This document shows, one piece after another, positions 4,076 through 48,177 of a stretch of DNA of 64,000 bases. The DNA is taken from positions 92,163 to 156,162 of the IMG/VR virus record IMGVR_UViG_3300044797_000394, one strand, 5' to 3'. The DNA comes from a virus. The notes beneath the pieces were generated by a model that did no database searches, was not told the origin of the DNA, and worked only from the letters and a program-made list of their open reading frames with translations. Made by a program: the position numbers and the translations under genes. Position 1 is the stretch's first letter. Every line of letters starts with the position of its first letter.

Positions 4076-5497
4076 GTGGATCGCATCGAATTTCGAGTTT
4101 TGAGCAGGTGGAAGTCAGCGAATGCTATCAAAATTACGATAGATCGTGACGCCACGAATAAAGCTCGTCAGCAATTCCCATCGATGACAGATCAAATCGT
4201 CGGTACGTTTGAGTCTCCGGTGAAAATGTATCGCATTTTTGATGGGGAGGAGTTGAGTCGTATTCTGCGAACGGGAAGGATTACGGGCGGGACTTACTCA
4301 GCCAAGGCGGAACGAACTCACGGAGCGTCTTGGGGGCACAACATCACGGAAGTCATTGAAATAGGGAATAAACTCAGGGGAAAACGGTACGGAGACGATC
4401 TCTTCCTCGCTCGTTTGGACGCAATGGGCGTCCGATTTCACCATTTGAATCCAAAGGTGCCCTTTGACCCGAACGGGCCACCTCATCAATCCGGGGTCAT
4501 GGAAGACTCCGCTTGCTGTTTTGGACTAGGGTGCTCGATGATTGTCGGACTTGAGGATGTCGACCTATTCGTCGTGCACTCAAATCATCAGATGGACCCA
4601 ATCTCTACGGAAGAGGCTAGAAATTACGTTGAGAAGCGACCCAAGAAGGATGTGGACCTGCGAGAAATAAATCCGCAATTATACCAGGGCTCCATTCTGG
4701 ATCATGATGTGCGGGTTTGGCTGACCGATGGTAAGTGGCAGGTCATTCTCAATGATGATCGAGTCATAGTCAATGACGCCCCGACGAAGGACGATGCGAT
4801 CGAAACAGCTAAGATTGGAATTCGCCTGCGGCCAGGGAAACCCGTGCCCACCTCCTACCAAATCCTACTCCGAAAGAAAAAGTACGAAAAGCATTTTGAG
4901 CAGGATGAGGACCCAAACAAGATTCGTGGTGACTTCTCTCTCAAGCCTAGAGATCGTGTGCTCGTTGAGAAGGGTTCTCGGGGACTAAACATTCCAGCTC
5001 ACTCGAGCGCTACCGTAGCCGACGTATATCAACGGACAGGGGATAGGACTGTTACTGTTAAGCTCATCATTGGAGACCGCCCCGTTTCTCTTTATGCCCA
5101 ACACCCCAACCGTCTTGGGGACCCTGAAATTGCATTGATGAATAGTGGTGGTGACCGCATCTTGATCCGAAAGAAAGCCACTATGAGTAAGCTCACCCTC
5201 AAAGTTGCTGCCCGCTATGCCGCCGAGCATGGCGGTTTGGATGTCGGGTACGGTCCCGCTGGTACGGGGCTGACGTACCAGGCCGAGTTTGACCCCACTA
5301 CGAAGTGCTTCAAATGTGGTAAGGATGCCAGGCTAGCTATTACCATCAAGGAGAAGCCGGGCGGGGATGCTGTGTGCCACCTGTACGACAATCATGATGA
5401 GGGCAAGTTCTGGCTTCACGATTTGGCAGCCTACGCCATTTATCTCTGTCCTGATGTCGATTGTGCTGAAGCCACCACCCTATGGAATCAAGGATGA
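4076..5497 (+). CDS. hypothetical protein with RVAARF-like motifs (putative virion protein)
   Basis: Long ORF; FRVLSRW near N-terminus, LKVAARY before Cys-containing C-terminal domain. Confidence 0.6.
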   Translation: MDRIEFRVLSRWKSANAIKITIDRDATNKARQQFPSMTDQIVGTFESPVKMYRIFDGEELSRILRTGRITGGTYSAKAERTHGASWGHNITEVIEIGNKLRGKRYGDDLFLARLDAMGVRFHHLNPKVPFDPNGPPHQSGVMEDSACCFGLGCSMIVGLEDVDLFVVHSNHQMDPISTEEARNYVEKRPKKDVDLREINPQLYQGSILDHDVRVWLTDGKWQVILNDDRVIVNDAPTKDDAIETAKIGIRLRPGKPVPTSYQILLRKKKYEKHFEQDEDPNKIRGDFSLKPRDRVLVEKGSRGLNIPAHSSATVADVYQRTGDRTVTVKLIIGDRPVSLYAQHPNRLGDPEIALMNSGGDRILIRKKATMSKLTLKVAARYAAEHGGLDVGYGPAGTGLTYQAEFDPTTKCFKCGKDARLAITIKEKPGGDAVCHLYDNHDEGKFWLHDLAAYAIYLCPDVDCAEATTLWNQG

Positions 5498-6888
5498 ACG
5501 ATATTGATCCTGAGTGGGGCATCGCCGCCCTCGAGTGGTGCCGTAGCCAACCCATGAGCGCATGCTCGGGGGAGGACGGTCTTGAGGACGTAATCTACGA
5601 CGACGTCGCTCCGACCGACGCAATCTCAGCCAGAGTTGCCGCACGAGTTTTGATCGCCAGGGGGTTCTTCGCCCCCGGGGACGAAATTGTATTCGGGAAG
5701 TACAAGAACAAGCACGGCATCATCGAGCGCATTTGGGCCGATGATCGTGGACACCCGATGATTGAGATTCGTCCAGTCCCACAAGGCCGCAAAAAGAACA
5801 AGATCATGGGTCTCTACAAGATCTGGCACGACCCCGACCCGCCCGACCCCGAAGAAGAAGAGAAGAAGACGGCTGCCGAACGAGTCGTTGAGCGCTATGC
5901 GGCGTCCGTAGTTCTCGAGAAGAAGTTTGGTCGATTCAAGGTGATTTATCTGAAGCAGCACGAAGAACACGTGGACAAGCTGGGTGCTTTGCTCGAGGAA
6001 GCGGAGCGTATGTACGCCGCTGCTGGTGTCCCCATCGTTCACGATATTTCGTCTGTACTAAGCGGGCGAGGTGCTTCCCATGCCGGCGCACTTTACACAA
6101 TGGGTAGTGTGCCTCCTACCATTCAGTTTGCACCGAAGTCCTACGAGGATCCTAAACTTATCCATACGGTCATTCATGAGCTTGGACACTACTGCCACGA
6201 TAAGGTGGTGCCAGGTGGAATTAATAACTCAGCAATCATCAGTAAGCACATGTGGGCTGTTCGTCAGAAGTCGACCGGTAAAAGCAACAAGGTTGACATT
6301 CTGAACCGAAAAATGAAGGCTCTGAATGAAGCGTATTCCCGACTGAGTGAGGAGCAAAACAAGCGAAAGCCATTGCCACGCAAGGGACAGGTATTTGAAT
6401 ACGATACGTGGGTCAATGGTGTGCAGTACCATGTGAAGGGTCGCATCGTTGGTAAGGCGGATAGTCGCACTGTCAACGTGGAGGTCATTGACGCCCCAGA
6501 GGCTTATATCAAGCGTCAGCAAATCTACCGACGAGGCCCTGGACCCTTAATTGTGCCTGAATCCGTCGATTCCCTTACCTATGCTGGTAAAGACGAAGCC
6601 AAAGAGGCGGAACTCAAAAAGGTTGAGGAAGAAAGGCATACGGTTTACGTAGAGTTGTCCTCCCTCATAAAGAGTGGCGAAGGACGGAGTGACTACAAAA
6701 CCCATCTACATGATTGGGTCCCCACGAACTATGCCCGTAAGAACCACATGGAGTATTTTGCAGAGATGATGACCACCTACATTCTTGGTCATCTAAAACC
6801 AGAACCGTCCGAGTGGCTCAAGAGTGTTGTCAAGACGGGTAAAGCTCCCGAGGCGCCTGAACCCGTACCCACAGAAGAGCCCGAATGA
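5494..6888 (+). CDS. zincin-type metallopeptidase domain protein with RVAARF-like motifs
   Basis: VIHELGH (HExxH), distal TNYARKNHMEYFAE; ARVAARV, ERVVERY. Confidence 0.7.
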   Translation: MNDIDPEWGIAALEWCRSQPMSACSGEDGLEDVIYDDVAPTDAISARVAARVLIARGFFAPGDEIVFGKYKNKHGIIERIWADDRGHPMIEIRPVPQGRKKNKIMGLYKIWHDPDPPDPEEEEKKTAAERVVERYAASVVLEKKFGRFKVIYLKQHEEHVDKLGALLEEAERMYAAAGVPIVHDISSVLSGRGASHAGALYTMGSVPPTIQFAPKSYEDPKLIHTVIHELGHYCHDKVVPGGINNSAIISKHMWAVRQKSTGKSNKVDILNRKMKALNEAYSRLSEEQNKRKPLPRKGQVFEYDTWVNGVQYHVKGRIVGKADSRTVNVEVIDAPEAYIKRQQIYRRGPGPLIVPESVDSLTYAGKDEAKEAELKKVEEERHTVYVELSSLIKSGEGRSDYKTHLHDWVPTNYARKNHMEYFAEMMTTYILGHLKPEPSEWLKSVVKTGKAPEAPEPVPTEEPE

Positions 6889-7619
6889 GGTTCCTTGTTG
6901 TTGCCCGCGCCCGGTCGAAAGGGCTTGTCAGTGAGGAGCGACAGCTTCGGTCTCGCAGTCGACGACTGAGCCGTGTCCGATCCTCCATGGAAGCGCTTCA
7001 AGCCAAAGTCAAGCGAGACCTACGCTCGAGCGATCCCAATCGTTTTCTCACCGCGTTGGCGGTCGGACTCATGGCTGAGACGAGCGAGGACCCCGTCTTC
7101 TCTTGGCGGAAGAAGAACGTCCAGCTCGATGATCGAGAGGCGTACTTCCGAGCCAAGGGGAAACGCAAGCCCATCACCAACGCATCGATCGTCAGAGCTT
7201 TGGCGGATGCCTACGAAGCGGTCGAGGATGTGGACGACGAGCTCTTTGCACACGACACGGGTCGCGTGACGGCGGACATGGTGAACGAATACCTGGGCGG
7301 ATTCAAGCTCAATATGAGTGATATCCGAGGGTTCAACGCCAATAGAATCATGTCTTCCAAGTTGTCTCAGGTTCGATCTGAGGGTCCCGAACTCCCAAGG
7401 CAAAAACGATCAAGAACGAAGCTCCTTCAAGGGGAGTTCCTCAAGGCACTCGAAGCCACTGCGGAAGAGGTAGGACTCGAGGCCGACATGATCCGATTTA
7501 ATTGCCTTGATCCGGGAATGGAAGCCGCCTACCTCGACAATGGAACCCTGGAGAAAACAGCCTCTTTGGATCCGCTGACCGTGAAGGTTGCGAGTCGGTT
7601 TCAGAAACTCCACGGATAG
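6885..7619 (+). CDS. DNA topoisomerase IB-like protein, apparently catalytically degenerate
   Basis: KVKRDL, ALAVGLMAET, FRAKG, VTADMVNEYL, SDIRGFNAN, RFNCLDP follow TopIB order; catalytic Tyr position appears to be Cys. Confidence 0.6.
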   Translation: MRFLVVARARSKGLVSEERQLRSRSRRLSRVRSSMEALQAKVKRDLRSSDPNRFLTALAVGLMAETSEDPVFSWRKKNVQLDDREAYFRAKGKRKPITNASIVRALADAYEAVEDVDDELFAHDTGRVTADMVNEYLGGFKLNMSDIRGFNANRIMSSKLSQVRSEGPELPRQKRSRTKLLQGEFLKALEATAEEVGLEADMIRFNCLDPGMEAAYLDNGTLEKTASLDPLTVKVASRFQKLHG

Positions 7620-7718
7620 TTCACTTTAGTTTTGAGGGTACGTAACAGAACCTCGTCTTGATGCGTCGAGAACGGTGTACTCTAAGAACGAACCCCAACC
7701 ACAACCCAGGAAATCAGG

Positions 7719-12678: not shown

Positions 12679-13011
12679 GTGGGAGCTTGGGAGAAGAGGC
12701 GAGCGGCGCACAAACGCCGGACTGATTTACGGGCGATGGCGGTAGCCCACCTTGGCGGTCGGTGTAGGATATGTACCTATGATGGGACGCCCGCCGCGTT
12801 TGACTTTCACCATGTGAATCCGCTCGAGAAAGACTTCACGATTTCGGACCGAATGACTTCCTGGGAACGTATCCGCCCCGAGCTCGAAAAGTGCGTGCTT
12901 TTATGCTGCCGCTGCCACCGAGAAGTTCATGAGGGGATGCACGGCGGTTTTCTTGTTGACGAGTCCGACGAGCGTGGTTCGGACGACCTACTCCTTGACG
13001 AGGCGGTATGA
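12679..13011 (+). CDS. HNH endonuclease
   Basis: CRIC, FDFHH, KCVLLCCRCHREVH; start uncertain. Confidence 0.8.
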   Translation: MGAWEKRRAAHKRRTDLRAMAVAHLGGRCRICTYDGTPAAFDFHHVNPLEKDFTISDRMTSWERIRPELEKCVLLCCRCHREVHEGMHGGFLVDESDERGSDDLLLDEAV

Positions 13012-14276
13012 CGTACAGCTATGATCGCCGAGTGGCGAAGGACATCACGTTGGACCTCGAGTGGATTGAGAACCTGCGTAAGGACTTTCTCACACTCATG
13101 AAGAACATTCCTCGCATCAAAAGCTACAAGGATGCGGACAAGGTTCGGGACGGTGTCAAAGCCTTTCGTAAGAACTTCGACCATATCGTTTTCGAGACCT
13201 TTCTCAATCACGACTTCAAGTATGATGACAAGGTCTCTGAATCGGACCGTAAGTGGTACGGTGACAAGCTTCGGAAGACCGGGTGGGATTTTTCAATTGA
13301 ACTCAATCTCCCTCTTGGGTACCCGGATAGCAAGTACAATCCTCAGTCTCAGGAGTCGTTGTTTGCCAGCTTCGAAATGGAGAAGGACAAGTGGGCAGCC
13401 AAGGTAAAGGAGAAGGCACGGCTCTTTTGGAAAGAGATGAAGGAGTTCGTGGAATACCGAGAACGAGTCACGGGCACCCCTAACTACACGGTGAAAACCC
13501 GGGACACTGAGAAAGTCGAGATGGAGGGCTTTCATGTTTCAGTCGTCGGGTATGAGAATGACGAAGACGGCTTCTTGGAACGTTTCAAGGAAGGACTTAG
13601 GGTTTTTCGACGCCGTGCAAAACAGGTATTTCCCTGGCTTCTACAGCATATGCTGCCCATTCGACTGAATGCATATGTTACCATGGGCGAGGGCGGTAGG
13701 TATGAGGGGGATCATATTGAAATCGCTATGGGCGGGTTCTTTGATCACAAGAATCCAAATATCGTGGCTCACGTTATTGCCCATGAAATGGGGCACCACA
13801 TCTACAAGGTGTACCTGAGCGAGGCGGACCGCACGTTCTGGTCAAAAGCAATTAGCGACGATGCCGAACCTCTTGACGTTGACAAGCTTTTGAAGGTCTG
13901 GCCAGAAGGCGCTTGGGCTCATGAACTCGTAGAAAAACTCGTGGACGTGGACCCACTCTTAGCCCTTCAAGTTGACGTCATAGCTCACGGGCAAGCGCGA
14001 TCGGGCGGAGTTGAATTCAATACGAGGGAAGACTTCGAGAAGCTTCTTGCTGATGGGGTCAAGTTCGTTACCGTCAAGCATCCCATCACGGGTTACGGTG
14101 GAAAGAACGTTGAAGAATCATTCTGCGAGGTGATGGGTTTGCTGGTCGGGTACGGTCCAGCTACAGTGCAGCCCATCGTCAAACACTGGCTGAATCTCAT
14201 CATGCCTGACGTCAAAGTCGCGTCCGATCGTACCGCCAGGGAAGCCGTTCGGGCCGTTCTCCGCCGCTCGGTGTAA
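13008..14276 (+). CDS. zincin-type metallopeptidase domain protein
   Basis: IAHEMGHH, distal ITGYGGKNVEESFCE; RRVA and KVA motifs at termini. Confidence 0.7.
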   Translation: MTYSYDRRVAKDITLDLEWIENLRKDFLTLMKNIPRIKSYKDADKVRDGVKAFRKNFDHIVFETFLNHDFKYDDKVSESDRKWYGDKLRKTGWDFSIELNLPLGYPDSKYNPQSQESLFASFEMEKDKWAAKVKEKARLFWKEMKEFVEYRERVTGTPNYTVKTRDTEKVEMEGFHVSVVGYENDEDGFLERFKEGLRVFRRRAKQVFPWLLQHMLPIRLNAYVTMGEGGRYEGDHIEIAMGGFFDHKNPNIVAHVIAHEMGHHIYKVYLSEADRTFWSKAISDDAEPLDVDKLLKVWPEGAWAHELVEKLVDVDPLLALQVDVIAHGQARSGGVEFNTREDFEKLLADGVKFVTVKHPITGYGGKNVEESFCEVMGLLVGYGPATVQPIVKHWLNLIMPDVKVASDRTAREAVRAVLRRSV

Positions 14277-16849: not shown

Positions 16850-18626
16850 TCTCGCAGGTGACGAGCATATCGTCACCTTTCGAGGACATGCTCACGGAGG
16901 AGCGGAAAGCTTCGTCCCGAACTTCGTGATTAATGCTTTCCTTCAGGACTCCATCGAGAGACGACTTGAGTTTTCGGAATGCGGTCGTGTCGCCTTCGGC
17001 GCCCTTGACCGTGACGTATACGATGGGGCCCTCGCCCGCCTCTGCGGAGATTTCATAGCCCTCGACTGAGACCTTCGCTTGGAGCTCCTTGGCGAGCTTG
17101 CTCATCCATCCGTGCAGCCAGCCTTTTTGATTCGCCATAACAACGCGTTCCTTCCATCGGACCACCACGCGGGCGGCCATCATGATGTTGTCTCGAGCAC
17201 TAGCCTTCTTCGACTTCTTCCACTCCTCATAGTAGCGCTTCTGGTGCTCCCAGGGAAGGTTCCGAATCTTACGACTGCGGGGATTTGACGGAGATTCTTT
17301 GTGGGTGGAATTGAAGTTCGGGTTGGGAACCTCTTTTTCGCCCATGGAATCGAGGAAGGTGGACTTCGTTTTGCTATCGTTGTCTTTTTCAGACTTATCG
17401 TGATCCTTCTTTTCCTCTGGTTTCTTCGAACCACCGCCGGCTCGAGCCTCGGCGTCCTCGTTCATCGCCTTGACAGCCTCTGCGATGTTCTTTTCGGGCT
17501 TCTTGGGGAGCCCCTTGAGGGTACGTCCGTAGCTCGTTTCCTTCTGGAGCTTGTACTGTGCGGCGCCGTACAGAATCTCGTTGATCTTGGTCTTTGCCTC
17601 CCCCTTTTCTTGCTCGCTCATTGTGGAGAGCTTGTTCATGAGGTCTCGAGCCTGCTTACGACGGGCTTCGGCTTCCTCGGGAGTGTGCGCGGGGGGGCCC
17701 TTGCGGTAATGCAGGAAGTTGTCCGGATCAGCTTCCTGAATCGACTTCAGAGCCTTTTCGTTCTTCTTGTACCAGTTGTCGATGTCCGATTGATCCACCA
17801 TTCTCTTGCCCATGACTTTGCCACGGCTGAGGTTGGATAGTTCGGTGTCGGCCTTCTCGGGGTGTAGGAAGATGACGCTGACCTGGTACCCCGCCGCCTT
17901 GGCGTGTTCGACCTGGCCCTTGAAGTCCATCGTGTCGATGTCCTCGCCCGCCGAGTCGACAATCAGCATGTGGGAGGCGTCATCGTGCTCCGCCATACGA
18001 CGAACCTTATCGTCGAAACGATGTCTGGCCTCATCCTTGTAGCGCTCCTTAGGTTTGCCAGTTTCCTCGTTTTTCTCGTCGACGTCGTTGTGCCAACCTC
18101 GCATAGAGACGTAGAAGTCCGTGTTGTACTTCTTCAGAAACGCCTTGTGCCCTTCGATTGGGTCGTCGGTTTTGGGGAAATCCTCATATTTGGCGTACTT
18201 TGAGAGATCCTGACGTTCCCCGTCCTTCGTCTTGTACCAGATGTCAGCCAGCGCCTTGTCGAAGGATTCCTTGCCTTCCTTGTGGGCTGTGACGAGGTCC
18301 TCATAGTGACCTTTGGACTCTTCGAATTGGATGGCTCGAAGGTGATTGTCACTCTCATCTTGGTCCGGAATGGCAGGAATGTCCTCATCCGTAAAGAGTC
18401 CGGTCGTACTCTTTGGGAGTCGATACCCGAAGGTTGTTTCTCGCTCCTCGCCTTTTTCGGTTTTGTACTTCTTGGTCTGACCGCCCTTGTCCTTTTCGGG
18501 CTCTCCGAGGAAGTAACCTTTTCCAGCGGCGGGCGGACCGATCATTACGACCATTTTCTTAGCCCGTTTGGGCTCAGAGTCGGCCAGGACACGTCGTAAG
18601 ACTCGAAGGGCTATGGGACTCGGCAC
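16830..18626 (-). CDS. zeta-toxin-like P-loop kinase domain protein with RVAARF-like motifs
   Basis: MIGPPAAGKG, LIVDSAG, GYQVSVIFL...RGKVMGKRMVD; ALRVLRRV and AARVVVRW; AAGGAG SD before GTG. Confidence 0.6.
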   Translation of the reverse strand: MPSPIALRVLRRVLADSEPKRAKKMVVMIGPPAAGKGYFLGEPEKDKGGQTKKYKTEKGEERETTFGYRLPKSTTGLFTDEDIPAIPDQDESDNHLRAIQFEESKGHYEDLVTAHKEGKESFDKALADIWYKTKDGERQDLSKYAKYEDFPKTDDPIEGHKAFLKKYNTDFYVSMRGWHNDVDEKNEETGKPKERYKDEARHRFDDKVRRMAEHDDASHMLIVDSAGEDIDTMDFKGQVEHAKAAGYQVSVIFLHPEKADTELSNLSRGKVMGKRMVDQSDIDNWYKKNEKALKSIQEADPDNFLHYRKGPPAHTPEEAEARRKQARDLMNKLSTMSEQEKGEAKTKINEILYGAAQYKLQKETSYGRTLKGLPKKPEKNIAEAVKAMNEDAEARAGGGSKKPEEKKDHDKSEKDNDSKTKSTFLDSMGEKEVPNPNFNSTHKESPSNPRSRKIRNLPWEHQKRYYEEWKKSKKASARDNIMMAARVVVRWKERVVMANQKGWLHGWMSKLAKELQAKVSVEGYEISAEAGEGPIVYVTVKGAEGDTTAFRKLKSSLDGVLKESINHEVRDEAFRSSVSMSSKGDDMLVTCEIIFPDT

Positions 18627-21473: not shown

Positions 21474-21749
21474 ATGGACTACGACGACTTGGAATTTCCT
21501 CCTTCTCATTTGATGAAACCCACGCATCGTGCTTCGGTTGTGGCCGAAGATTTCAAGTGCCCCAAATGCAAGGCACCTATGGTTGAGAAAATAGGGAAGT
21601 TCGGACCATTCTTCGGTTGTGTGCGGTTCCCTTCCTGCAAGGGCTCCCTCGACGTCACCAAGTCCAAGTCCAAGTCCAAGTTTAAGTCGGTCAGCAAACC
21701 GTCCGCCCCAGCAAGGAAGACAGTTTGGGACCACTTGGTCGGGGACTAA
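21474..21749 (+). CDS. topoisomerase I-type C4 zinc finger protein with C-terminal TVWDHL motif
   Basis: CPKCKAPMVEKIGKFGPFFGCVRFPSC; ends KTVWDHLVGD. Confidence 0.8.
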   Translation: MDYDDLEFPPSHLMKPTHRASVVAEDFKCPKCKAPMVEKIGKFGPFFGCVRFPSCKGSLDVTKSKSKSKFKSVSKPSAPARKTVWDHLVGD

Positions 21750-22793: not shown

Positions 22794-22858
22794 CCACTCT
22801 AGTTTACACCGTCCCCGTAAAATACGGGGTGCCACTTCTTCTTGTGTAGTGGTAAGGT

Positions 22859-23878
22859 GTGGCGTTCGTTGGATTAAAGGTTCCTGTTGAGCTAGGAAGC
22901 CTGTTCAGTCAGGTTGAGGTTCCCGGTCGTAGGGAATCCAAGGACAAGTACCACGTAACCATTCTAAATATGGGAAAAGACGTACCAATCGAGCAGATTG
23001 GCAAAGCCTCAGTCGTTGCCTTCAAAGTCTGCGAACAGACCCCGCCCTTCATGGTTACTACGAAAAAGGTGTCTCAGTTCCCAAAGGGTTCCGATGGGGT
23101 TCCCATCATCGCCCTCATCGAATCCCCCGCCCTGCACAATCTTCAGGCCAACCTCAAGAAGGCCTTCGATAAAGAGGGGGTCAGCTACTCCAAGAAGTTT
23201 CCCGAATTTAAACCGCACGTCACCCTCGCATATAGTGACACAGGTATGCCCGAGCAGGCCATTGTCCCGATCAGTTGGACGGTCAGTGACATCAACCTCT
23301 GGGGCGGGGATTCTGGAGAGGAGCGGATCGTTACCAGGTTCCCCCTTAGCATGGACGCGCATAGCTCTCGGATGGCGTCGGTTAGAAACGATCGGGTGTC
23401 GGCTCTTCGGGTAGCCGCTCGATATCAGATTGCTTGTGAGGGAGGAGTTTGCACTTGCGGCGGTACCTGTTCTTGCGGTAAGTCCTCTGCGAAACGTCAA
23501 AATCCTACGGATGCGACGTTGGGAAAAGTGTGGGAGGAAGGTGGAAAAGCAAAGTTCGTCACCTGGGCAAACCGTAAATTTCTACCAGAATTCAAGAAAG
23601 CTCTAGGCTCTTCGGACAGTGTTGCAGCAGACTTATTCGGAGAGGGCGTTTTCGACAATTTCCTTCGGACGGTTCAAGAACTACCGAACATATCTAAGAC
23701 CTTCGGGTACCCTCTTGCAGGGACTCGTGATGACTCACTAATGGGTATGTGGGGACAAATCATAAGCACCTTGCGATACCGTCACCCGGACTTTCGTAAG
23801 GTGGAAACTCCGTACCGTCTATATGAAAATGATTACGTCACCTTGAAGGGGATTGTCGACACTTTAGGTCGTCGATGA
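22859..23878 (+). CDS. 2H phosphoesterase (ThpR/Acb1-like) fused to C-terminal domain
   Basis: Two HxT motifs (YHVTI, PHVTL); internal ALRVAARY. Confidence 0.8.
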   Translation: MAFVGLKVPVELGSLFSQVEVPGRRESKDKYHVTILNMGKDVPIEQIGKASVVAFKVCEQTPPFMVTTKKVSQFPKGSDGVPIIALIESPALHNLQANLKKAFDKEGVSYSKKFPEFKPHVTLAYSDTGMPEQAIVPISWTVSDINLWGGDSGEERIVTRFPLSMDAHSSRMASVRNDRVSALRVAARYQIACEGGVCTCGGTCSCGKSSAKRQNPTDATLGKVWEEGGKAKFVTWANRKFLPEFKKALGSSDSVAADLFGEGVFDNFLRTVQELPNISKTFGYPLAGTRDDSLMGMWGQIISTLRYRHPDFRKVETPYRLYENDYVTLKGIVDTLGRR

Positions 23879-24723
23879 GCATCGCGCTCCGAGTTGCCGC
23901 GAGGTTCATGATAGCCTCTCTCCTTGAGGAACTTCGGCACAAGATGGATGATCTCCTCAAGGACAGCCCGCTCGACGCGGCTAAGGGAGAAGCCTTAGCT
24001 AAGTGGCTCGAGGATAACTTCTACATTCTGTCCCCGAAGACGCCCAAGGGTCAAAAGGCGGTCAAGGCCATCGCTGAAAAACTGCATTGGTGGCTCAAGT
24101 CAGGCATCCGAATGCATCAGGACCCGGAAGCGCCCAAACGGACGATCGAAGAGACTTGGAAGGAGCTCGAATCACACTTGAGCGACTTCGTCAAGTACTT
24201 TTCGGCTGAGGGCGGCAACGTTGTGCCCAAGGAAATCAAGCTCGACGGGAACACTTTCACCAACGGGGCGGGGCTGAACGAGAAAAAGTTGAACGAGTAC
24301 GCCTCGCGCCTTTCGGACGTCTTCAAGGATCTCAAGGGATGGCGTAGGGGAGCCCTGGAGGGGGGCGTCAGGGTCTACTTTGCCAGCCCTAAGGACTTCG
24401 GCGGAGGGACTGCGGGCGGCAAGTACAAGTCCGACCAGGACGTCTTGTACGTTCGCGCCACGCCCGACGTTCTCAAGCGAGAGGGTAAGTCTTACGCTGG
24501 GTTTGAGTACATCATTGTGCATGAGCTCGGTCATCGGTACGAACGCAAGCATCATGTGCCCACGGACTTCGACCGTCCCGAGTGGCATACGACTCCATAT
24601 TCCAAGAAAGAGGGGGAGGGGTTTGCGGAGCTTTTTGCCCTGACGAACTTCGGGATCACCAACGCCCATACGAACTGGGGATCAGAATTGAACGAGCGTT
24701 TCGAAAAATTAATGGGTGGCTAA
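23875..24723 (+). CDS. zincin-type metallopeptidase domain protein with N-terminal RVAARF
   Basis: IVHELGH, distal TPYSKKEGEGFAE; MSIALRVAARF. Confidence 0.7.
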   Translation: MSIALRVAARFMIASLLEELRHKMDDLLKDSPLDAAKGEALAKWLEDNFYILSPKTPKGQKAVKAIAEKLHWWLKSGIRMHQDPEAPKRTIEETWKELESHLSDFVKYFSAEGGNVVPKEIKLDGNTFTNGAGLNEKKLNEYASRLSDVFKDLKGWRRGALEGGVRVYFASPKDFGGGTAGGKYKSDQDVLYVRATPDVLKREGKSYAGFEYIIVHELGHRYERKHHVPTDFDRPEWHTTPYSKKEGEGFAELFALTNFGITNAHTNWGSELNERFEKLMGG

Positions 24724-25169
24724 TGGGAATCGTTGAGAGGGTCGTGCTCCGGCACATGACGGCTGCCAGGTGGGACAATTCCGTGAACGGGTCGTACTTC
24801 TCACTCCGCTGGAATAAGACCAAGTGGAGCCTTGAGGAAATGTTGGACGGGTCACGTATTCCCGCAACGTCTAACTTTGGGGAAGGCCATGCGGGTCTTG
24901 TGACTTACGAGATGCCTCAACTGGGCGCCCTTCTGTCAAAGTACGACACACCCATCAACGCCCACTCGGACAGTATCCGAGTGGGCGCCAAGCTCCAGGG
25001 TGAGGATACTGGCCCCGTTGCTCGTCAGAAGCTCATTACAGCGAGCAATGAGCACATGAAGCTCGCTATTGATAGCTTAAGAGAGGATGGTTCACCGGAC
25101 CTGAACAAGGTCATCCACTTGGCGAAGGAGTTCGAGAAGAAGCTCGTTTGGAAGAAGATCAAGGCGTAG
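24723..25169 (+). CDS. hypothetical protein with N-terminal RVAARF-like motif
   Basis: TAATG overlap; MGIVERVVLRH. Confidence 0.6.
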   Translation: MGIVERVVLRHMTAARWDNSVNGSYFSLRWNKTKWSLEEMLDGSRIPATSNFGEGHAGLVTYEMPQLGALLSKYDTPINAHSDSIRVGAKLQGEDTGPVARQKLITASNEHMKLAIDSLREDGSPDLNKVIHLAKEFEKKLVWKKIKA

Positions 25170-25458: not shown

Positions 25459-25881
25459 TCAGAGGTGGACTAGATCCCCATTACACAAAAGGTTCGCCCC
25501 TTCACCGATTCTTGGTTCTTTACCGTGAGAAAGGTACGCTTTTCCGCATTCTTTGCAGATGTTGGATCCAGAGGATCTTCTGACCTGATGCCATAGAAAC
25601 GCCATGGGTCCCTCTTCCGTCTCGTACACTTTTTGAACAGCTAGAACCGTTCCCTCGTCCGCCCGACCCATAATCGTGCGGCATACGTCTCTCAAGACAA
25701 CGTGATAACGAACGTCCGGGGACATCACTCGTTCTGGCCAGTAGTTGTACAGAACCTTAGGAATAGCGATGACGGCCAGAACGAGGTTCTGACTTCTTCG
25801 CACCTTGGGATCGGGCACTTGAGAAACGACGAATTCCCCCATCCTTTGGTTGCCAACGATGACGGTTCTCGTAGGATGCAT
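25459..25881 (-). CDS. hypothetical protein
   Basis: CGGTGTA (25895-25901, minus) 13 nt upstream; C-terminal CxxC/H/C. Confidence 0.55.
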   Translation of the reverse strand: MHPTRTVIVGNQRMGEFVVSQVPDPKVRRSQNLVLAVIAIPKVLYNYWPERVMSPDVRYHVVLRDVCRTIMGRADEGTVLAVQKVYETEEGPMAFLWHQVRRSSGSNICKECGKAYLSHGKEPRIGEGANLLCNGDLVHL

Positions 25882-25942
25882 GGGCTTTCATGGATACACC
25901 GGCGAAAATGCTTATCATATTACTTTATTGGAGATCTTTCCG

Positions 25943-26935
25943 ATGCCTACCCCTATCGATTGGTGCTCAAGGTGTGCTGCTCAGGTCTACGACGTAGACG
26001 GAGTTGACGGCGCCTGCGGGTGCCCTGAGGGACAGCTCAAGCAACTGCTAGCGAGCGTCACATCCAAAAAAACCATCCCAACTGGCAAGATAGAGGGCTG
26101 CTTCGGACCCGTGCCCAAAGTGACGGTTCCGTCCACAGTAGAGATGCCGAAGATCGGTCACATCCACTATCGGACCTCGTGCACGGGATGTGGAAGTGTC
26201 GAAACATGCCGTTGTATAGGATCTAGGGTGGACGTGACTGTCGCCTCTTGTTATCGCTGCCAAATAAAGCAAGCAGCTAGTCCGAAGACGGACGACGACT
26301 TTCTAAGCGACCTTTTCGCTCGAGAGGGTTCCGTGGCTCCGACCACGGCGGACGAGGCGCTTCAGGGTCTTTGGAGCACGGAACCGACGATGGACGAGGA
26401 TGTTGGGGTCACGGCATCCGTAGAGCAGACGGGTCTCGAAGGGCTCTGGATGGGGCGCGTGGCGTCCGAAACAGGGCGACACGTGCAATCGGGTGCGGAA
26501 TTGGAGTCCCTGTGGATGCAGGAACTTTCGACGCCGACGGGAACGACGGCTCGAGTGGAATCAGACGATATCACGTTCGATAACGACATGGACATGGACA
26601 CCGAACTGTCTCAATACCGTACGACTCCTGATCGCCGCAATGCCTTTCGCGTGGACAGACCTCCTCGTCCTACGCAAATCGGGCAGTCCGGTCGATTTCC
26701 TGTCGTGAGGGAGGCTCAAGACCTCAATGAGATCCTGAGACCTCGTCCTGTGTCACCACGCCCCTCGTCTAGCGCTAGGAGTAGCATCACAGAAGTGCGT
26801 CAGATGGCGGCTTCAATGCGACCGCCGCCGCCCCAGCCCGTACGACAGCAAGAGACTCGGTCGGCTGTACAACGGGCGGCCGAATACTCAAAGCGGACGA
26901 CCGTCTTTGAAAGATTGATGAGTGACGACGATTGA
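25943..26935 (+). CDS. Cys-rich, largely disordered protein with C-terminal TVFERLMSDDD motif
   Basis: N-terminal CxxC clusters; repeated LxxLW; acidic tail. Confidence 0.6.
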   Translation: MPTPIDWCSRCAAQVYDVDGVDGACGCPEGQLKQLLASVTSKKTIPTGKIEGCFGPVPKVTVPSTVEMPKIGHIHYRTSCTGCGSVETCRCIGSRVDVTVASCYRCQIKQAASPKTDDDFLSDLFAREGSVAPTTADEALQGLWSTEPTMDEDVGVTASVEQTGLEGLWMGRVASETGRHVQSGAELESLWMQELSTPTGTTARVESDDITFDNDMDMDTELSQYRTTPDRRNAFRVDRPPRPTQIGQSGRFPVVREAQDLNEILRPRPVSPRPSSSARSSITEVRQMAASMRPPPPQPVRQQETRSAVQRAAEYSKRTTVFERLMSDDD

Positions 26936-27377: not shown

Positions 27378-27830
27378 ATGCCGGCGGCGATAACGAATAG
27401 CACTCTTCTTTCGGCTATCGCGGACGCTACGGAAGGCAAGGGTGTCCTATTCCTCGTTGACCAGGTGGCATCCACTCAGAGACTGATCGAACGGTCAATC
27501 GATCTGACCATCGACGGTCTTCGTAACTACGGGGGATTGACGAAAGAGCAAGCCGAAGGTTACGTAACCGTTGGTAACGTTTCCTGGCGTCTCAACTTAG
27601 GTTCCGGGGGTTGGCTCTTTTTCTTCCCCGTCATGAACCTGAAACCGCACGAGGACGTGGGCAACCCCACTTATGTCTACGGTCGAAACAACAAGGGCGT
27701 GTACGAGCGTACGTCTTACAAATTGTGGAAGGCCAAGTTTCCCACACCTTCAGAACCGGACGAGGATTCTGATGAGTTCGAGAAGCCCCCGTTGAAAAGC
27801 GTCTGGTCTCACTTACTGGAGGATGATTGA
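27378..27830 (+). CDS. hypothetical protein with C-terminal SVWSHLLEDD motif
   Basis: In operon after MazG. Confidence 0.65.
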   Translation: MPAAITNSTLLSAIADATEGKGVLFLVDQVASTQRLIERSIDLTIDGLRNYGGLTKEQAEGYVTVGNVSWRLNLGSGGWLFFFPVMNLKPHEDVGNPTYVYGRNNKGVYERTSYKLWKAKFPTPSEPDEDSDEFEKPPLKSVWSHLLEDD

Positions 27831-43821: not shown

Positions 43822-44450
43822 ATCCCACCGTTTTTGGACTGACCGGAGGAATCGCCAGCGGTAAGAGCACGGTCTCGAAAGTTTTCGCCAGGCGGGGGAT
43901 TCCCATTGTCGACGCCGACGAGATAGCTCACCTGATCGTGCGCCCCGGTATGCCAGCTCTCAAAGCTCTTGTGAAAGAATTCGGGGACGGTATTCTGACG
44001 AACGACGGAGAGATGGATCGCCAGAAGGTGGGTTCGATGGTCTTCGGGAACCCAAAGGAGATGGCCCGTTTGAACTACACAATCGGACCGTATCTCCGGG
44101 CCGCCTGTCAACTTAGGATCGAAAAGAAGCTCAGTGAGGGGCATGACCTCGTTTGCTTCGATGCACCTCTCCTGATCGAGAAGGGGCTGCAATCTCTCTA
44201 TCGCCCCGTTGTGGTCGTCTACTGCGAGGTAGAGACTCAGATCCGACGTATGAAAACTCGAAACGGCCTAACGGAAGAGGAGGCTCGAGCTCGTATCGCC
44301 TCCCAGGCTACGCACGATCAACGATTGTGGCACGCCGACTTTCTGATCAGCACCGACAACACAATGGAAGAGACGGCCATCTTGGCCAATCAAGTACTCG
44401 ACCGGGTCATCAGTTGGTGCCGCAGGTCTCGCAAACCACTGATGTGGTAA
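43818..44450 (+). CDS. coaE: dephospho-CoA kinase
   Basis: GLTGGIASGKSTV, VDADEIA, DAPLLIE, ARARIASQ. Confidence 0.93.
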   Translation: MNPTVFGLTGGIASGKSTVSKVFARRGIPIVDADEIAHLIVRPGMPALKALVKEFGDGILTNDGEMDRQKVGSMVFGNPKEMARLNYTIGPYLRAACQLRIEKKLSEGHDLVCFDAPLLIEKGLQSLYRPVVVVYCEVETQIRRMKTRNGLTEEEARARIASQATHDQRLWHADFLISTDNTMEETAILANQVLDRVISWCRRSRKPLMW

Positions 44451-44492
44451 GATTCCCAAATGTAGCCCCTCCATGGAAGACGAGTAGGACCC

Positions 44493-44951
44493 ATGATGTT
44501 CACAGTTCGAAATCGAGGAGACGCCGAGGCGGCACCCCAGTGTGATAAGCCACACGCATTCGTTAGTATTCGCTCTCCTGAGGATCGTAAGGCGAACCTA
44601 CCAATCAATGAGCACACCCTGGGAGCCTTGTTCCTTGAGTTCAGTGACGCGGACGTTCCTAAAGAAGGTGTGACCCTCTTTACGTCTGAGCTGGCAAAGG
44701 AAGTTTTGGACTTCGCCATTGACATGCGGCGGAAAAACGTGGAGGAGCTCTATTTCAACTGCAACATGGGTCGGAGTCGTTCGCCCGCCGTAGCCGCTGC
44801 CATCGCCCTCACGGTGTTTGACGATGCCGAAGCGGAGAAAGAGTTCTTTCGCCGGTATACCCCCAACATGCTTGTCTATCGCAGCATTTGTAGTGCCTAC
44901 ATGCTGATGCTCGACGAGTCCTCCCCACTTACGAATTCCGATGTTGTGTAA
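44493..44951 (+). CDS. Cys-based protein tyrosine/dual-specificity phosphatase
   Basis: CNMGRSRS (Cx5R), FSDAD, PNMLVY. Confidence 0.85.
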   Translation: MMFTVRNRGDAEAAPQCDKPHAFVSIRSPEDRKANLPINEHTLGALFLEFSDADVPKEGVTLFTSELAKEVLDFAIDMRRKNVEELYFNCNMGRSRSPAVAAAIALTVFDDAEAEKEFFRRYTPNMLVYRSICSAYMLMLDESSPLTNSDVV

Positions 44952-45267
44952 CAAATGCGTGTTGCATGAATTGTGCAACACCGTGCAACATGAGGGTGGC
45001 AAGGTTTACGTCGAGGACCCCGACGAGTATGGGGTCAGCATCTACGTCATCCCCAAAGGGGCTAAACCGGACATCAAACTGAGACGGGACGGGACGGTCG
45101 GACCACAACGGAAACTCTGGCTAAACGAGATTCCGGACAAGTGCACATGCGGAGAGGAAGTAACGTGCACACTCGATCTGACGTGGAAGCCCACGGCTCA
45201 AACCGAGATGCACGTTATAGTGAACGACGGACCCATCGAACGACGTGAGCACCTCAACCTGTTGTGA
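44941..45267 (+). CDS. hypothetical protein
   Basis: Overlaps upstream stop. Confidence 0.5.
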   Translation: MLCNKCVLHELCNTVQHEGGKVYVEDPDEYGVSIYVIPKGAKPDIKLRRDGTVGPQRKLWLNEIPDKCTCGEEVTCTLDLTWKPTAQTEMHVIVNDGPIERREHLNLL

Positions 45268-46678
45268 GGTAAGCGGACTCCAAGTTTCGAATGTATGGTT
45301 TCGCATCGAAGCCGCCGTTCATGTCCGATAGATCCGCGAACGAATACCTACCCCCGTGTTGATAGACGCGATCCTGGAGGTACGTTCGAATGTTCTCGGG
45401 GGAATCTTTGGGCGAAGATTCCCAGAGTTGAGCCGCGAATGCCGCTCCAATGATGTAGCACGGGAAGTATCCGAATAGACCGCTCGGCCAGTGGGTATCC
45501 TGAAGAACCCCTTCGCGTCGATCCTCTTTAGGCTCCCGTCCGAGGTAGGACTTGCAGAGCTCGTTGAATCGGCCTTTCATGTCTTTCACTTCGAGCCCGT
45601 TCTCGAAAAGGTCTCGCTCGAGTTCGTAGCGGATGAGAATGTGTAGACCGTAATCAAGGTTTCCCGACTGGAGCCGAATCAGATTCGATTGATCGTTGTG
45701 ACGGAAGTCCGCTAGTAAGTCGTTGGGGTGCGTGTAACGGTAACAGGTCATACTGGAAAAATCGTCAAACCATCGATTCCAGAACAAGTCGGACTGTCCG
45801 ACCATGCATTCCCAGAAGAGACTTTGGGACTCGTGAATCGAGGTGGAGTCTAGGGTGAAGAACCTCGTATGCTCCGCATTCTGTTCGTAGAGCGCGTGCC
45901 CCGCTTCATGAACCACGGCCTTTATGGTCCAGAGTGGATCCTTCGGCCTCAAAGAGGCGGCTATCCGTACATCATCCCGATGTACGCTCGCCATGAAAGG
46001 GTGCTCGGTCTCCGCAATCACGCCTCGATTGTAGTCGTAACCCATCCACTGAGTAACATTTTTGCAAAAGGCCAAAAGGGTAGGTTTCGTGGCCTGGAGG
46101 TGGCTCTTCGTCAAAAAAGAGGCTCGAGGACCGGGGTTGACCTGTTCTCGGATTCTCAAGAGTTCGGGCTTGATGGCGGGTACGATCTTGGTATCCAGAA
46201 ATTCCTGGGTCATACCAGGGTCAAAGCCGTCGAGTAGGCAGTCGTACGGCTTATACTCCGGATAGCAGGCGGCGTAGGAACGGTTCAAATGCACAAGCCT
46301 CTCGAGGAACGGTTGGACTTCCTCGAATGTAGTTGCATCGTGCCAAACGGAAGTTCCCTTAGAAGCCACTTCCGCCAGTTCGGACATGAGAGCCTCAGGC
46401 ACCTTCCTCATGTCCTCGTGCGTTTCTAGCCAGTACTTGCCAGCTTCTTTGAGTAGAGCGTCCTCTCCCGCTGCATAGATGGCGTTTTGAGCCAGTTCTC
46501 CTAGCTCCGGGCCGGTCATTTTTCGATGGATCTCGCGTTCGATGAGCGCCATCGCTCGAGCTCGACTGTCCGCCCCCTCGGTTGGCATGTATGTGTCCTG
46601 GTCCCAACTAAGTAGGCTCTGGATACCAGACAAGTCATTGACTTCTTGGATATACTCGAGAAAAGTTGTCATCTGCAT
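45254..46678 (-). CDS. M32 carboxypeptidase
   Basis: LSWDQDTYMP, HPF, HEAGHALYEQ, IHESQS, GVLQDTHW, GYFPCY. Confidence 0.93.
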   Translation of the reverse strand: MQMTTFLEYIQEVNDLSGIQSLLSWDQDTYMPTEGADSRARAMALIEREIHRKMTGPELGELAQNAIYAAGEDALLKEAGKYWLETHEDMRKVPEALMSELAEVASKGTSVWHDATTFEEVQPFLERLVHLNRSYAACYPEYKPYDCLLDGFDPGMTQEFLDTKIVPAIKPELLRIREQVNPGPRASFLTKSHLQATKPTLLAFCKNVTQWMGYDYNRGVIAETEHPFMASVHRDDVRIAASLRPKDPLWTIKAVVHEAGHALYEQNAEHTRFFTLDSTSIHESQSLFWECMVGQSDLFWNRWFDDFSSMTCYRYTHPNDLLADFRHNDQSNLIRLQSGNLDYGLHILIRYELERDLFENGLEVKDMKGRFNELCKSYLGREPKEDRREGVLQDTHWPSGLFGYFPCYIIGAAFAAQLWESSPKDSPENIRTYLQDRVYQHGGRYSFADLSDMNGGFDAKPYIRNLESAYLTTG

Positions 46679-47109
46679 AATTCCAAGTTGTCCTGAAGGT
46701 TTTCGAACATTTCTTTGAGTGGGCGGCATTCGTAGTCAGGTGGGGACGAATCTTCCACGCAATAACAAATCGCCTCACTGTCTGCAATCTGCCAATGCAC
46801 CACTCGAACCACCCTGTAGACAAAAGGCACCAAGTTCAAAAATTCTCCGACTACAGGGACGCGACTGAGTACGACTACTTCGTTGTGGTCCGTCACATCC
46901 AAACACGATATTGTTACACGAGTCCCTACCTCCACGAATTCCGGTGTGTGTCCCGATTTTTCGCTTTTGTCGCACGTACGACACTTAGATGGGGACGGCT
47001 TTACCCTTAATGGGTGATGTGGACCATTATCCGGTTCGATCATCGACCCACCGCACGAGATGCAGGGTATCCAGGTTTTTATGTACTTTTTCATGTTTAA
47101 CTCTCCCAA
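46669..47109 (-). CDS. hypothetical Zn-finger protein
   Basis: CISCGG...CRTC. Confidence 0.5.
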   Translation of the reverse strand: MGELNMKKYIKTWIPCISCGGSMIEPDNGPHHPLRVKPSPSKCRTCDKSEKSGHTPEFVEVGTRVTISCLDVTDHNEVVVLSRVPVVGEFLNLVPFVYRVVRVVHWQIADSEAICYCVEDSSPPDYECRPLKEMFENLQDNLELCR

Positions 47110-47504
47110 CTTTCGCCAACATTGAAGAGACCCTCAATCACCTCTTTGGACTCATGTTTGGGGCACAGGCGGAACATGCGAGTCCCGACTTCTCCGTACC
47201 GTTCGGTCCACTCAGCACAAACTTGACACCTGCGCTGTGTACCATTACAAGTGCCGAATCTGAGATTCGTGTCAAGGAGGTACTTCTTGTAGCAAGCCTG
47301 CGCTTCTTCCTCGGTTGCGTGACCGTCCGTATGGTAGTTTTCCTTGAGTTCAAGGTGCCTCTTCACCTCTTCTTCTGAGACCGCGTCGTCCTGGGTATAT
47401 TCGGTCCACTCGGTGCAATATCCGATGGGCCATATATGGTCGTTGTTTCGGCACGTGTAGTCAAACCGTCCCGAGCTGCGTTGACGAGCTTTAAGGTGAT
47501 TCAT
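47097..47504 (-). CDS. hypothetical protein
   Basis: CGGTGTA (47515-47521, minus) 10 nt upstream. Confidence 0.65.
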   Translation of the reverse strand: MNHLKARQRSSGRFDYTCRNNDHIWPIGYCTEWTEYTQDDAVSEEEVKRHLELKENYHTDGHATEEEAQACYKKYLLDTNLRFGTCNGTQRRCQVCAEWTERYGEVGTRMFRLCPKHESKEVIEGLFNVGESWES

Positions 47505-47585
47505 GACGCGCCCCTACACCGCATTTCGAAGTTCGTGGGGAAAATAAATCGTGACGACTCAACCGTCCCGGTGTATAGGTAGGGC

Positions 47586-47792
47586 ATGACCAAGAACAAG
47601 GTGTCTCGACGCGCAGAAAAGCAGTTGACCCGACGGCAGGCCGAGGATCTGATTGCCGGGAGTTCGGATCCGGCCTTTCTGGCAAAGCTTCAGTTTTCGG
47701 AACACAAAAACAAGCACGTGAAGGCGAAGGCGAAGTACAAGCTGGCGAAGCTCTCGGCCTCGGAATCGGCGGCGCCTACTGAAGCGGCTTAG
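47586..47792 (+). CDS. small basic protein
   Basis: CGGTGTA 47569-47575 10 nt upstream. Confidence 0.65.
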   Translation: MTKNKVSRRAEKQLTRRQAEDLIAGSSDPAFLAKLQFSEHKNKHVKAKAKYKLAKLSASESAAPTEAA

Positions 47793-48177
47793 GGTTCCGC
47801 TTCAGCTTCCAACGGCGGGGTTCGTCGACCGGTGACGGGTCTTTGACTGGCCTCACTGGGTGAACGTAGTCGACGGGTACGGGCGGCACGGGAAGCACTG
47901 GTTTCGGGTGTTTTGGCGGGTGCATGGGAGCCGGGGTTGTCGCCCGAGGAATGTCGGGTTTATGCGGCAATTTTGGCTTCTGGGGACGGTCCGGCCGTCT
48001 CGGCTTTCCGTGGTGTTTGATGTGATCCTCGGAATCGGCGGGTACCCGCTCGTACGTGCCCGTTTCCTCTTCAGCCGTCTCGGGAAGGACGTACACAATT
48101 CGGTCCTTTTCCTTGTTGATCACGGGTATCTTGGTTTCGGCCAGAAACCGAGCGGCGACCCTCTCGACGATTCCCAT
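47776..48177 (-). CDS. Pro/Lys/His-rich protein with N-terminal RVAARF
   Basis: MGIVERVAARFLA; PxxP-rich tail. Confidence 0.65.
   Translation of the reverse strand: MGIVERVAARFLAETKIPVINKEKDRIVYVLPETAEEETGTYERVPADSEDHIKHHGKPRRPDRPQKPKLPHKPDIPRATTPAPMHPPKHPKPVLPVPPVPVDYVHPVRPVKDPSPVDEPRRWKLKRNPKPLQ

Follow-up and report, generated by a model that had tools for sequence, protein, structure and literature searches.

The window, the final 64 kb of a 156-kb fragment from an uncultured huge phage, holds a series of genes whose products share a short peptide with the core R-V-A-A-R-F/Y (Table 1). A sequence-only reading had listed eleven such motifs as the mark of a second protein class. All eleven lie in frame in long ORFs of the genes it named, and the class with its shared short peptide proved to be real, reaching far beyond the present genome. 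The weak forms it had noted in the gene at 13008..14276 are degenerate tags, since relatives carry canonical tags at the homologous places (C-terminal in L035, N-terminal in L072).

Table 1. Tagged genes of the window. Each motif starts at the first core coordinate on the plus strand and at the last on the minus strand.
Protein	Gene	Strand	Tags and flanking element	Pfam match
Unknown-fold protein, 473 aa, two tags	4076..5497	+	N-terminal FRVLSRW, core 4091-4111; internal LKVAARY, core 5198-5218, K-K-A-T-M before internal core	
HExxH (zincin-like) protein, 464 aa, two tags near N-terminus	5494..6888	+	ARVAARV, core 5629-5649; ERVVERY, core 5878-5898, K-K-T-A before second	
Topoisomerase-IB-like protein, C-terminal tag	6885..7619 (start 6885/6987)	+	VKVASRF, core 7581-7601, K-T-A ahead, ten residues before gene end	
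HEMGH zincin-like protein, 422 aa	13008..14276	+	Degenerate N- and C-terminal tags	
Zeta_toxin-type P-loop kinase domain protein, 598 aa	16830..18626	-	N-terminal LRVLRRV, core 18588-18608; internal ARVVVRW, core 17154-17174, after K-K-A-S	PF06414, 2e-7
2H phosphoesterase (LigT-like), then joint tag, then Cys-rich C-terminal part	22859..23878	+	LRVAARY, core 23405-23425, after R-M-A-S	PF13563, 3e-12
HELGH zincin-like protein, 282 aa, N-terminal tag	23875..24723	+	LRVAARF, core 23887-23907	
Protein of 148 aa, N-terminal tag	24723..25169	+	ERVVLRH, core 24735-24755	
Proline-rich basic protein, 136 aa, N-terminal tag	47776..48186	-	ERVAARF, core 48145-48165	

The whole 156-kb record contains 14 copies of the tag on 12 proteins, at N-termini, C-termini and domain joints. 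Five of the 14 are internal or C-terminal, unlike a strictly N-terminal propeptide of the T4 type. In the called genes of the record, RVAAR occurs five times, against 0.05 in residue shuffles, and the pattern [RK]V[ALVS][ASVLRE]R[FYWVH] gave 12 matches where 0.42 were expected (shuffle maximum 2; n=200). A near-identical pattern, which also admits Q at the fourth position, is nine times as frequent in the coding frame as in the other five frames. Codon choice varies from copy to copy, so the repeat exists at the protein level and is not a DNA repeat. No similarity outside the tag was detectable among the 12 bearer proteins of the record, and the T4 capsid targeting sequence likewise heads otherwise unrelated proteins of one phage.

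The consensus is (M)-D-P-[LI]-A-L-R-V-[AV]-A-R-[FY]-[KL]-x-A; in its clade-wide form, position -1 is variable. Both arginines are invariant, and the second arginine and the aromatic residue are the most conserved. The peptide is amphipathic and basic, and specific residues, beyond mere amphipathicity, are conserved across proteins that are 30-50% identical. Structure modeling placed the tag in a helix (residues 3-22, pLDDT 78-88) preceding a loop (whole model pLDDT 93.8). We conclude that the R-V-A-A-R-F/Y peptide is genuine, kept in related huge phages and previously undescribed, and that it is a real, autonomous module.

The individual genes were compared with databases and relatives. The first protein of Table 1 is without a Pfam or PHROG match, and the two-tag region of its neighbor at 5494..6888 is conserved in L012:18063-18953. 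The topoisomerase-IB-like protein is 33% identical over 231 aa to L035 and 39% identical to the product of G004 194914-195951, which matches PF01028 at 5e-29; in the homologous regions of relatives, by contrast, the tag is N-terminal. On the 2H phosphoesterase protein, the Acb1 model scored under its cut-off; in L033, a tag joins a 2H domain to a zincin. The N-terminal tag of the HELGH protein is kept by orthologues in L039, L019 and G004. That of the 148-aa protein also begins the orthologue L020:326-766 (48% identity), which supports a gene start at 24723. The tag region of the proline-rich protein matches residues 62-109 of L008:1286-4159 and is homologous to the tag region of a large protein located just after the portal gene in relatives. 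Five of the seven HExxH proteins of the record are tagged, the zincin fold matches of the structure model being weak.

As a descriptive comparison, tagged proteins are more basic than the other non-structural proteins (median pI 7.9 versus 6.0) and contain less cysteine (0.64% versus 1.46%). Their genes lie among, and in operons with, replication and nucleotide-metabolism genes, away from the structural block at 0-62 kb of the record. The sequence-only reading would have been contradicted by a motif equally common in metabolic enzymes, but none of the replication and nucleotide-metabolism enzymes bears the tag, the bearers being effector-like enzymes. It had also described the CGGTGTA box as scarce at tagged genes. 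This is true (0 of 14) but not significant, since the box is present at just 20 of the 122 non-structural genes; several tagged genes occupy later positions of operons headed by the box.

In relatives of 350-512 kb, the tag was found on at least 34 BLAST-unrelated protein families, among them zincin peptidases, topoisomerase IB, a 2H phosphoesterase and a zeta-toxin-like kinase. The Pfam families on tagged proteins include Peptidase_Mx/Mx1, Topoisom_I, N6_N4_Mtase, LigT and Zeta_toxin. DNA enzymes (topoisomerase IB, methylase and endonucleases) are frequent among the bearers; less expected as head cargo are DnaJ-domain proteins, HicB-like proteins and proteins that hold homing endonucleases. 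Placement in the genomes varies among relatives, orthologues bear the tag at opposite ends, and tags mark the joints of the fused proteins L035 (1077 aa), L036 and L033.

The tags are accompanied by a second element. In agreement with the K/R-x-A motifs that the sequence-only reading had seen nearby, 10 of the 21 tags that are internal or C-terminal have K-[TK]-[AS] no more than 13 residues upstream, compared with a background of 2.9% (p about 1e-10). In 29 of 69 tags, the core is followed at +6 to +8 by [KL]-x-[AS]. Across the proteome, K-T-A shows no enrichment. A scaffold-like protein has three K-[TK]-A copies in a span of 35 residues, conserved in 5 to 7 of the 7 genomes, and the major head protein has one in an almost invariant stretch at its N-terminus. 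Since the scaffold region with K-T-A is conserved overall, the case for cleavage comes down to co-occurrence. Acidic residues are not enriched at any position after the core, and neither an L/I-x-E (T4) nor an A/S/G-x-E (phiKZ) site directly follows the tag.

The surroundings of tagged genes in relatives were also analyzed. In G004, a complete, syntenic relative, the gene for a tagged basic protein of 132 aa is followed by one of 193 aa (possibly TerS) and that of the large terminase. Next come topoisomerase IB, which bears a variant of the tag, three paralogues of 172-176 aa and the portal. After the portal stand a tagged low-complexity protein of 1196 aa, a gene of 282 aa and the maturation protease, and then a scaffold-like protein rich in Q, a gene of 213 aa and the major head protein. 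The post-portal protein of G001 has its tag at the same place as in G004, and G005 and G006 each have a tagged topoisomerase IB at a distance of about 3 kb from the portal gene. Thus, several tagged genes of these four relatives adjoin virion genes, whereas those of the window do not. A MuF domain was looked for and not found.

Tentatively, and short of calling it probable, we take as the likeliest of the readings that the tag is a portable address that loads host-attacking, effector-like enzymes into the phage head for delivery with the DNA. A helix of about 14 residues, amphipathic and with the core R-V-[AV]-A-R-[FY], would dock its bearer on a component of the assembling head, and the docked enzymes would ride in the virion and enter the cell together with the DNA. 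The cargo would comprise zincin peptidases, topoisomerase IB, the 2H phosphoesterase, the zeta-type kinase, RelA/SpoT-like and methylase modules and small basic proteins. The tag would function at either protein end or between domains. The K-[TK]-A and [KL]-x-A brackets would be sites of the head maturation protease, whose cuts would separate the cargo from its tag and divide the fused multi-domain forms. The sequence-only reading had likewise proposed head targeting and K/R-x-A cleavage. Circumstantial support for both comes from the terminase-portal-protease-capsid module of relatives, the K-[TK]-A element, the polyvalent-like protein set and the basic, low-cysteine composition; against them stand the tags outside N-termini and the lack of an acidic site. 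The place of the tagged genes of the record apart from its structural block, the variable placement in relatives, the odd cargo and the failure to find a MuF domain also weigh against head packaging.

Peptides that act in this manner exist elsewhere. Encapsulin cargo-loading peptides and the encapsulation peptides of bacterial microcompartments, located at N- or C-termini or between domains, send unrelated enzymes into a protein shell, and encapsulin shells have the HK97 fold in common with phage capsids. Their consensus sequences are different and they serve cellular compartments rather than virions, so the analogy is one of logic only. The inner proteins of SPN3US and phiKZ are cut at A/S/G-x-E motifs, and we know of no single short consensus tag across their unrelated families. 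The heads of these phages contain dozens of proteins that the prohead protease processes and that are ejected into the host cell (PMC5694885, PMC7411985, PMC10052503). Such propeptide-bearing ejection and inner-body proteins parallel the proposed head cargo but have no sequence relation to the present clade. The capsid targeting sequence (CTS) of T4 (IPI-III, Alt; Mullaney and Black 1996, reviewed in PMC9026906) is likewise a short portable peptide that loads unrelated, often basic proteins, and both termini of Alt undergo processing. Prohead loading and removal by the head protease have been demonstrated for T4, while for the present tag we infer them from sequences. In contrast to the CTS, which is N-terminal, precedes an L/I-x-E site and is unrelated in sequence, the present tag is also C-terminal, internal or tandem, and has K-[TK]-A on its flanks instead of an acidic site.

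The tagged set draws on the same palette as the polyvalent proteins of phages and conjugative elements, i.e., zincin-like peptidases (their commonest domain), RelA/SpoT, DNA-modifying and nucleic-acid enzymes, for which head packaging and processing have been proposed (Iyer, Burroughs, Anand, de Souza, Aravind 2017, PMC5512222). No shared linear tag is known to be described there. Polyvalent proteins combine two to fifteen conflict-related domains, whereas those of the window have one or two; L035, L036 and L033 do combine several. A zincin hub is evident here too, together with nucleic-acid and nucleotide enzymes. In relatives, fused forms of three or four polyvalent-type modules adjoin virion genes, whereas most modules of the window have a gene of their own, each tagged, just as joints are tagged in the fused forms. 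The clade, whose hosts are probably Planctomycetota-Verrucomicrobiota, might have split a polyvalent-protein arsenal into single genes, each sent to the head by a position-independent helical tag bracketed by K-T-A maturation-protease sites, although we regard this scenario as somewhat doubtful.

The main rival is that the tag tethers its bearers to the zinc-binding N domain of phage or host ClpX, like the XB tail of SspB, and marks a regulon for ClpX-dependent delivery, remodeling or timed degradation via host ClpP. The phage ClpX has a C4 zinc domain (C-x2-C ... C-x2-C), the GYVG pore loop and the LGF loop for ClpP, while the R-K-H loop is lost. Homologues (54-69% identical to it, weaker in two split frames) occur in seven relatives with the tagged zincin family (G002-G006, G007, G010), and none was seen in three fragments of 98-159 kb (G001, G008, G009); ClpP is missing from four of five relatives. 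Moreover, tagged genes of families that differ by genome flank ClpX in nearly every genome (at 82296, 83938, 84686 and 85902 in G000; two zincins in G004, G007 and G010), and 4 of the 12 tag matches of G004 lie less than 5 kb from it. This adjacency, like that to the head module, may reflect mere accessory islands. Nor do the two traits always coincide: LR745208 (485 kb) has three real tags and no ClpX match, although host ClpX could serve there; the huge phages Atu_ph07, G, Phosso and LR756511 encode ClpX and lack the tag; G005 has ClpX and just two tags. XB, a short docking peptide (RGGRPALRVVK; PMC3983244), binds wherever in the chain it stands (PMC12373786), as would suit a tag that occurs at both protein ends and in tandem copies, and the match to the tag of the present genome covers four to five residues (A-L-R-V-[VA]). 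Since position -1 is variable, this likeness shrinks to A-x-R-V-[AV] in the clade consensus, and the second arginine and the aromatic residue have no XB counterpart. In the published complex, XB is bound as a strand, but the structure prediction for the tag is a helix. The K-T-A bracket is also left unexplained. With an N-domain ClpX gene beside tagged genes, the putative docking of the tag on ClpX is still a live rival, although we regard it as unlikely.

Docking on some other common partner, such as portal or terminase (with DNA enzymes acting at packaging), a host hub protein, or zincins that cut tagged joints, demands just what was observed, a shared, position-independent peptide. The two invariant arginines and the aromatic residue imply one specific groove, and many bearers are DNA enzymes. 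Zincins are over-represented among the bearers and tags lie at fused joints, as in the self-processing suggested for polyvalent proteins (PMC5512222), yet a tag at Met1 of a single-domain protein would offer a peptidase nothing useful. No candidate partner is linked better than the head module or ClpX, and we consider such a partner rather unlikely. A motif devoid of any addressing role, be it a conserved helix that diverged paralogues have inherited or an amphipathic helix that binds membranes in a generic way, would suit the amphipathic, basic peptide, and some of the five HExxH bearers could be distant paralogues. However, most bearers are not detectably similar outside the tag and differ in fold and Pfam family, the tag shifts ends between orthologues, and its conservation is residue-specific, all of which makes this explanation very improbable.

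The proteins that huge phages of uncultured lineages carry into cells are largely unknown and likely include first-strike counter-defence enzymes. If the tag indeed addresses head cargo, the carried set would be predictable in hundreds of metagenomic genomes, and the injected proteome, 3-8% of genes, would be readable from sequence alone. It would also point to new anti-defence activities among the tagged zincins, 2H phosphoesterase, zeta-type kinase and topoisomerase IB, and the small tag, placed at either end, could bring foreign proteins into capsids. If instead it docks on ClpX, it would define a proteolysis regulon run by the phage, likewise a novelty. Under either reading, the tag is a handle for a pull-down that identifies its partner.

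The sequence-only reading of this stretch had listed eleven positions of a recurring motif with the core R-V-A-A-R-F/Y. All eleven were correct, and each copy lies in frame within a long ORF. Counted over the entire record, the core of five residues, RVAAR, appears 5 times in the called genes compared to 0.05 in shuffled proteins, and a stricter form of the originally described motif occurs 12 times compared to 0.42 expected. For a nearly identical pattern, in which Q is also permitted at the fourth position, the rate in the coding frame was 9 times that in the other five frames. Since synonymous codon use varies among the copies, we conclude that the repeat is selected at the protein level; the codon differences also exclude a DNA-level repeat as its origin. 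In total, 12 proteins of the record bear 14 copies of this tag, and the protein of window 13008-14276 has a degenerate pair in addition. All copies are located within 63.8-140 kb of the record and none in its structural block (the first 62 kb), and a position-specific matrix derived from all 14 revealed no additional strong copy in the record. BLAST among the tag bearers of the record detected no similarity outside the tag, excluding paralogy as the only cause of its sharing. A search of a literature library for the motif strings returned no relevant use of them.

Three of the bearers in the window have the zincin-like peptidase signature HExxH, and a fourth protein with this signature has the degenerate tags. 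The other bearers are a Zeta_toxin-type kinase, a topoisomerase-IB-like protein, a 2H phosphoesterase whose tag follows the domain, and three proteins without an assigned fold. Pfam analysis of 50 tagged proteins added DnaJ, DNA methylase, HicB-like, HTH and LAGLIDADG domains, and a RelA/SpoT-like signature was noted by eye in one further tagged protein. The tag is present on 5 of the 7 HExxH proteins of the record, and it was not found on the polymerase, helicases, thymidylate synthase, DHFR and ClpX of the phage. Tagged proteins are more basic and contain less cysteine than their neighbors. Five separate HExxH zincin-like families occur in this one phage; nearly all are tagged, and they have an E-x-F-A-E-like element downstream in common.

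The tag is longer and far more widespread than originally noted. The consensus of the aligned copies is (M)-D-P-[LI]-A-L-R-V-[AV]-A-R-[FY]-[KL]-x-A. The zincin-like family headed by the protein of genome 63828-65141 has 163 homologues, and 80 of the best 120 of these carry the pattern in their first 60 residues; some members have a second, C-terminal copy, some a tandem pair, and longer fused members a copy at the joint. A twin-arginine signal peptide, suggested by R-R-F-L variants in this family, was excluded by eye, the stretch after the tag being polar, not hydrophobic. In an AlphaFold model of the zincin, which has a pLDDT of 93.8, the tandem tag is helical at residues 3-22 (pLDDT 78-88) and leads into a loop; a fold search with this model returned only weak zincin matches (E > 0.05). 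Furthermore, in 25 loci of huge-phage contigs the tag also begins neighboring unrelated ORFs, the 61 tagged ORFs of these loci falling into 34 BLAST clusters. A tag profile matched 12 times in this record and 8, 12, 11 and 2 times in the related huge phages G001, G004, G006 and G005, respectively, and gave no match in four other huge phages.

The tag switches ends between orthologues: it is C-terminal in the topoisomerase-IB-like protein of window 6885-7619 and N-terminal in the homologous parts of proteins from locus L035 and from G005. In fused proteins of relatives, tags lie exactly at domain joints, as in L035, where the order is tag, topoisomerase IB, HEMGH zincin, two tags, zincin; loci L036 and L033 show comparable arrangements. 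By eye, about 9 of 21 internal tags follow a methionine at a distance of 5-12 residues (e.g., K-K-A-T-M, R-M-A-S), as would be expected if internal tags are former N termini of fused genes, or internal starts. Several proteins have a module, F-P-[ST]-P-[EK]-A-L-K-x-Y-L-x-E-H-P-K-A-D-x-x-x-H, directly after the tag, with 60-72% identity across otherwise different proteins. Upstream of several tagged genes, 9-12 nt from the start codon, lies a GGGT[AG]G or GGTGTA-like box. It resembles the CGGTGTA box found ahead of 20 of 122 nonstructural and 0 of 28 structural genes.

Coordinates of the tag-associated features and of the major head protein
Feature	Window	Genome (whole record)	Relatives	Remark
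Internal tags with upstream Met (examples)	5183-5236; 23380-23425			by eye
GGGT[AG]G/GGTGTA-like boxes	4030-4075; 22815-22858	83895-83937; 84645-84685		
Post-tag module		85902-86783	L012:722-1186; L012:10409-10972; L017:18285-19541; L039:13988-15601	genome copy upstream of window
HExxH zincin-like families	5494-6888; 13008-14276; 23875-24723	63828-65141; 83938-84657		
C-terminal K-T-[VA]-[FW] tag	21579-21749; 25880-26935; 27378-27830; 31731-33119 (-)	90121-90627		
Major head protein			G004 209357-210229 (L050:9357-10229); L079-L083	

The window spans bases 92163-156162, the end of a single virus record of 156,162 bp. The record encodes giant structural proteins in its first 62 kb, and replication, nucleotide-metabolism and many unknown genes in the remainder. 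The IMG/VR contigs related to it measure 300-512 kb, and some have direct terminal repeats; one of its proteins is also carried by a 463,523-bp contig. On these grounds, the record is a huge-phage fragment, covering about one third of the genome. G004 (379,936 bp, with terminal repeats) is syntenic with it. G001 was ruled out as a separate lineage: it has 87 proteins in common with G004 and represents another part of a same-clade genome. Searches of cultured phages by DNA and protein found no close relative of the record; the tag was not found in the genome of Atu_ph07, for which a virion proteome exists (PMC6102473). Contigs binned as Verrucomicrobiota, Omnitrophota and Planctomycetota carry homologues of one tagged family, which hints at hosts in this group.

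Our tentative preference is that the tag addresses proteins to the head as cargo. The head module of G004 begins with a tagged 132-aa basic protein, a 193-aa gene (possibly TerS) and the large terminase, followed by a topoisomerase IB with a tag variant, three paralogous 172- to 176-aa genes and the portal. Next come a tagged 1196-aa low-complexity protein, a 282-aa gene, an intein-split maturation protease, a Q-rich scaffold-like protein, a 213-aa gene and the major head protein. The post-portal protein, in which no MuF domain was found, has a tag at the equal place in G001, and the small protein of window 47776-48186 is homologous to its tag region. In G005 and G006, the portal is about 3 kb from a tagged topoisomerase IB. 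The remark that K/R-x-A elements adjoin the motif was robust: of 21 internal or C-terminal tags, 10 have K-[TK]-[AS] no more than 13 residues upstream, compared to a background of 2.9%, and the core is followed by [KL]-x-[AS] in 29 of 69 tags. In the scaffold-like protein, three copies of K-[TK]-A lie inside a 35-residue span and are conserved in 5 to 7 of 7 genomes; the major head protein has one copy, in a nearly invariant stretch at its N terminus. We infer that K-[TK]-A is a candidate maturation protease site, and that tags may be bracketed by such sites. The major head protein shows 92-97% identity between genomes, compared to about 50% for their other proteins, and partial paralogues of it occur elsewhere in the genomes. 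The head maturation protease is interrupted by inteins or homing-endonuclease insertions (G004 204280-207237); ClpX is probably interrupted in some relatives too, its frames measuring 781-795 aa in G006 and the related G010.

The tag might instead tether its bearers to ClpX, which we consider unlikely. The phage ClpX (genome 82628-83914, upstream of the window) has the zinc-binding N domain, GYVG loop and LGF loop, and a longer loop in place of the absent R-K-H loop. ClpX is encoded by seven relatives. ClpP is absent from four of five, so host ClpP is the probable docking partner of the phage ClpX, with a changed selection of substrates. Tagged genes flank ClpX in most ClpX loci examined, the flanking families varying by genome. 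The ClpX-binding tail of the adaptor SspB, RGGRPALRVVK (PMC3983244), functions at any chain position (PMC12373786) and has A-L-R-V-[AV] in common with the tags of this genome. However, this likeness is weaker for the clade consensus, and nothing in the SspB tail is equivalent to the invariant R-[FY]. Moreover, a 485-kb phage has genuine tags but no detected ClpX, and four ClpX-encoding huge phages lack the tag, excluding that it occurs wherever phage ClpX does. In Bacillus phage G, a ClpX-like gene adjoins a ClpP-like head maturation protease. Docking on another common partner is somewhat doubtful, and a tag without any addressing role very improbable. The genomes compared for tag contexts are all of one clade, and the head-module and ClpX contexts could partly reflect accessory-gene islands.

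The head-cargo reading shares its logic with the T4 capsid targeting sequence (PMC9026906), but the tag differs from it in sequence, position-independence and flanking motif and is therefore outside that family. The tagged set also has the domain palette of the multidomain polyvalent proteins of phages, in which the zincin-like peptidase is the commonest domain and for which packaging and head processing are proposed (PMC5512222). Five otherwise unrelated proteins have a second shared tag, K-T-[VA]-[FW]-[DES]-[HR]-L-[LMV]-x-D-D, at their C termini, which suggests a second address system of the same phage.
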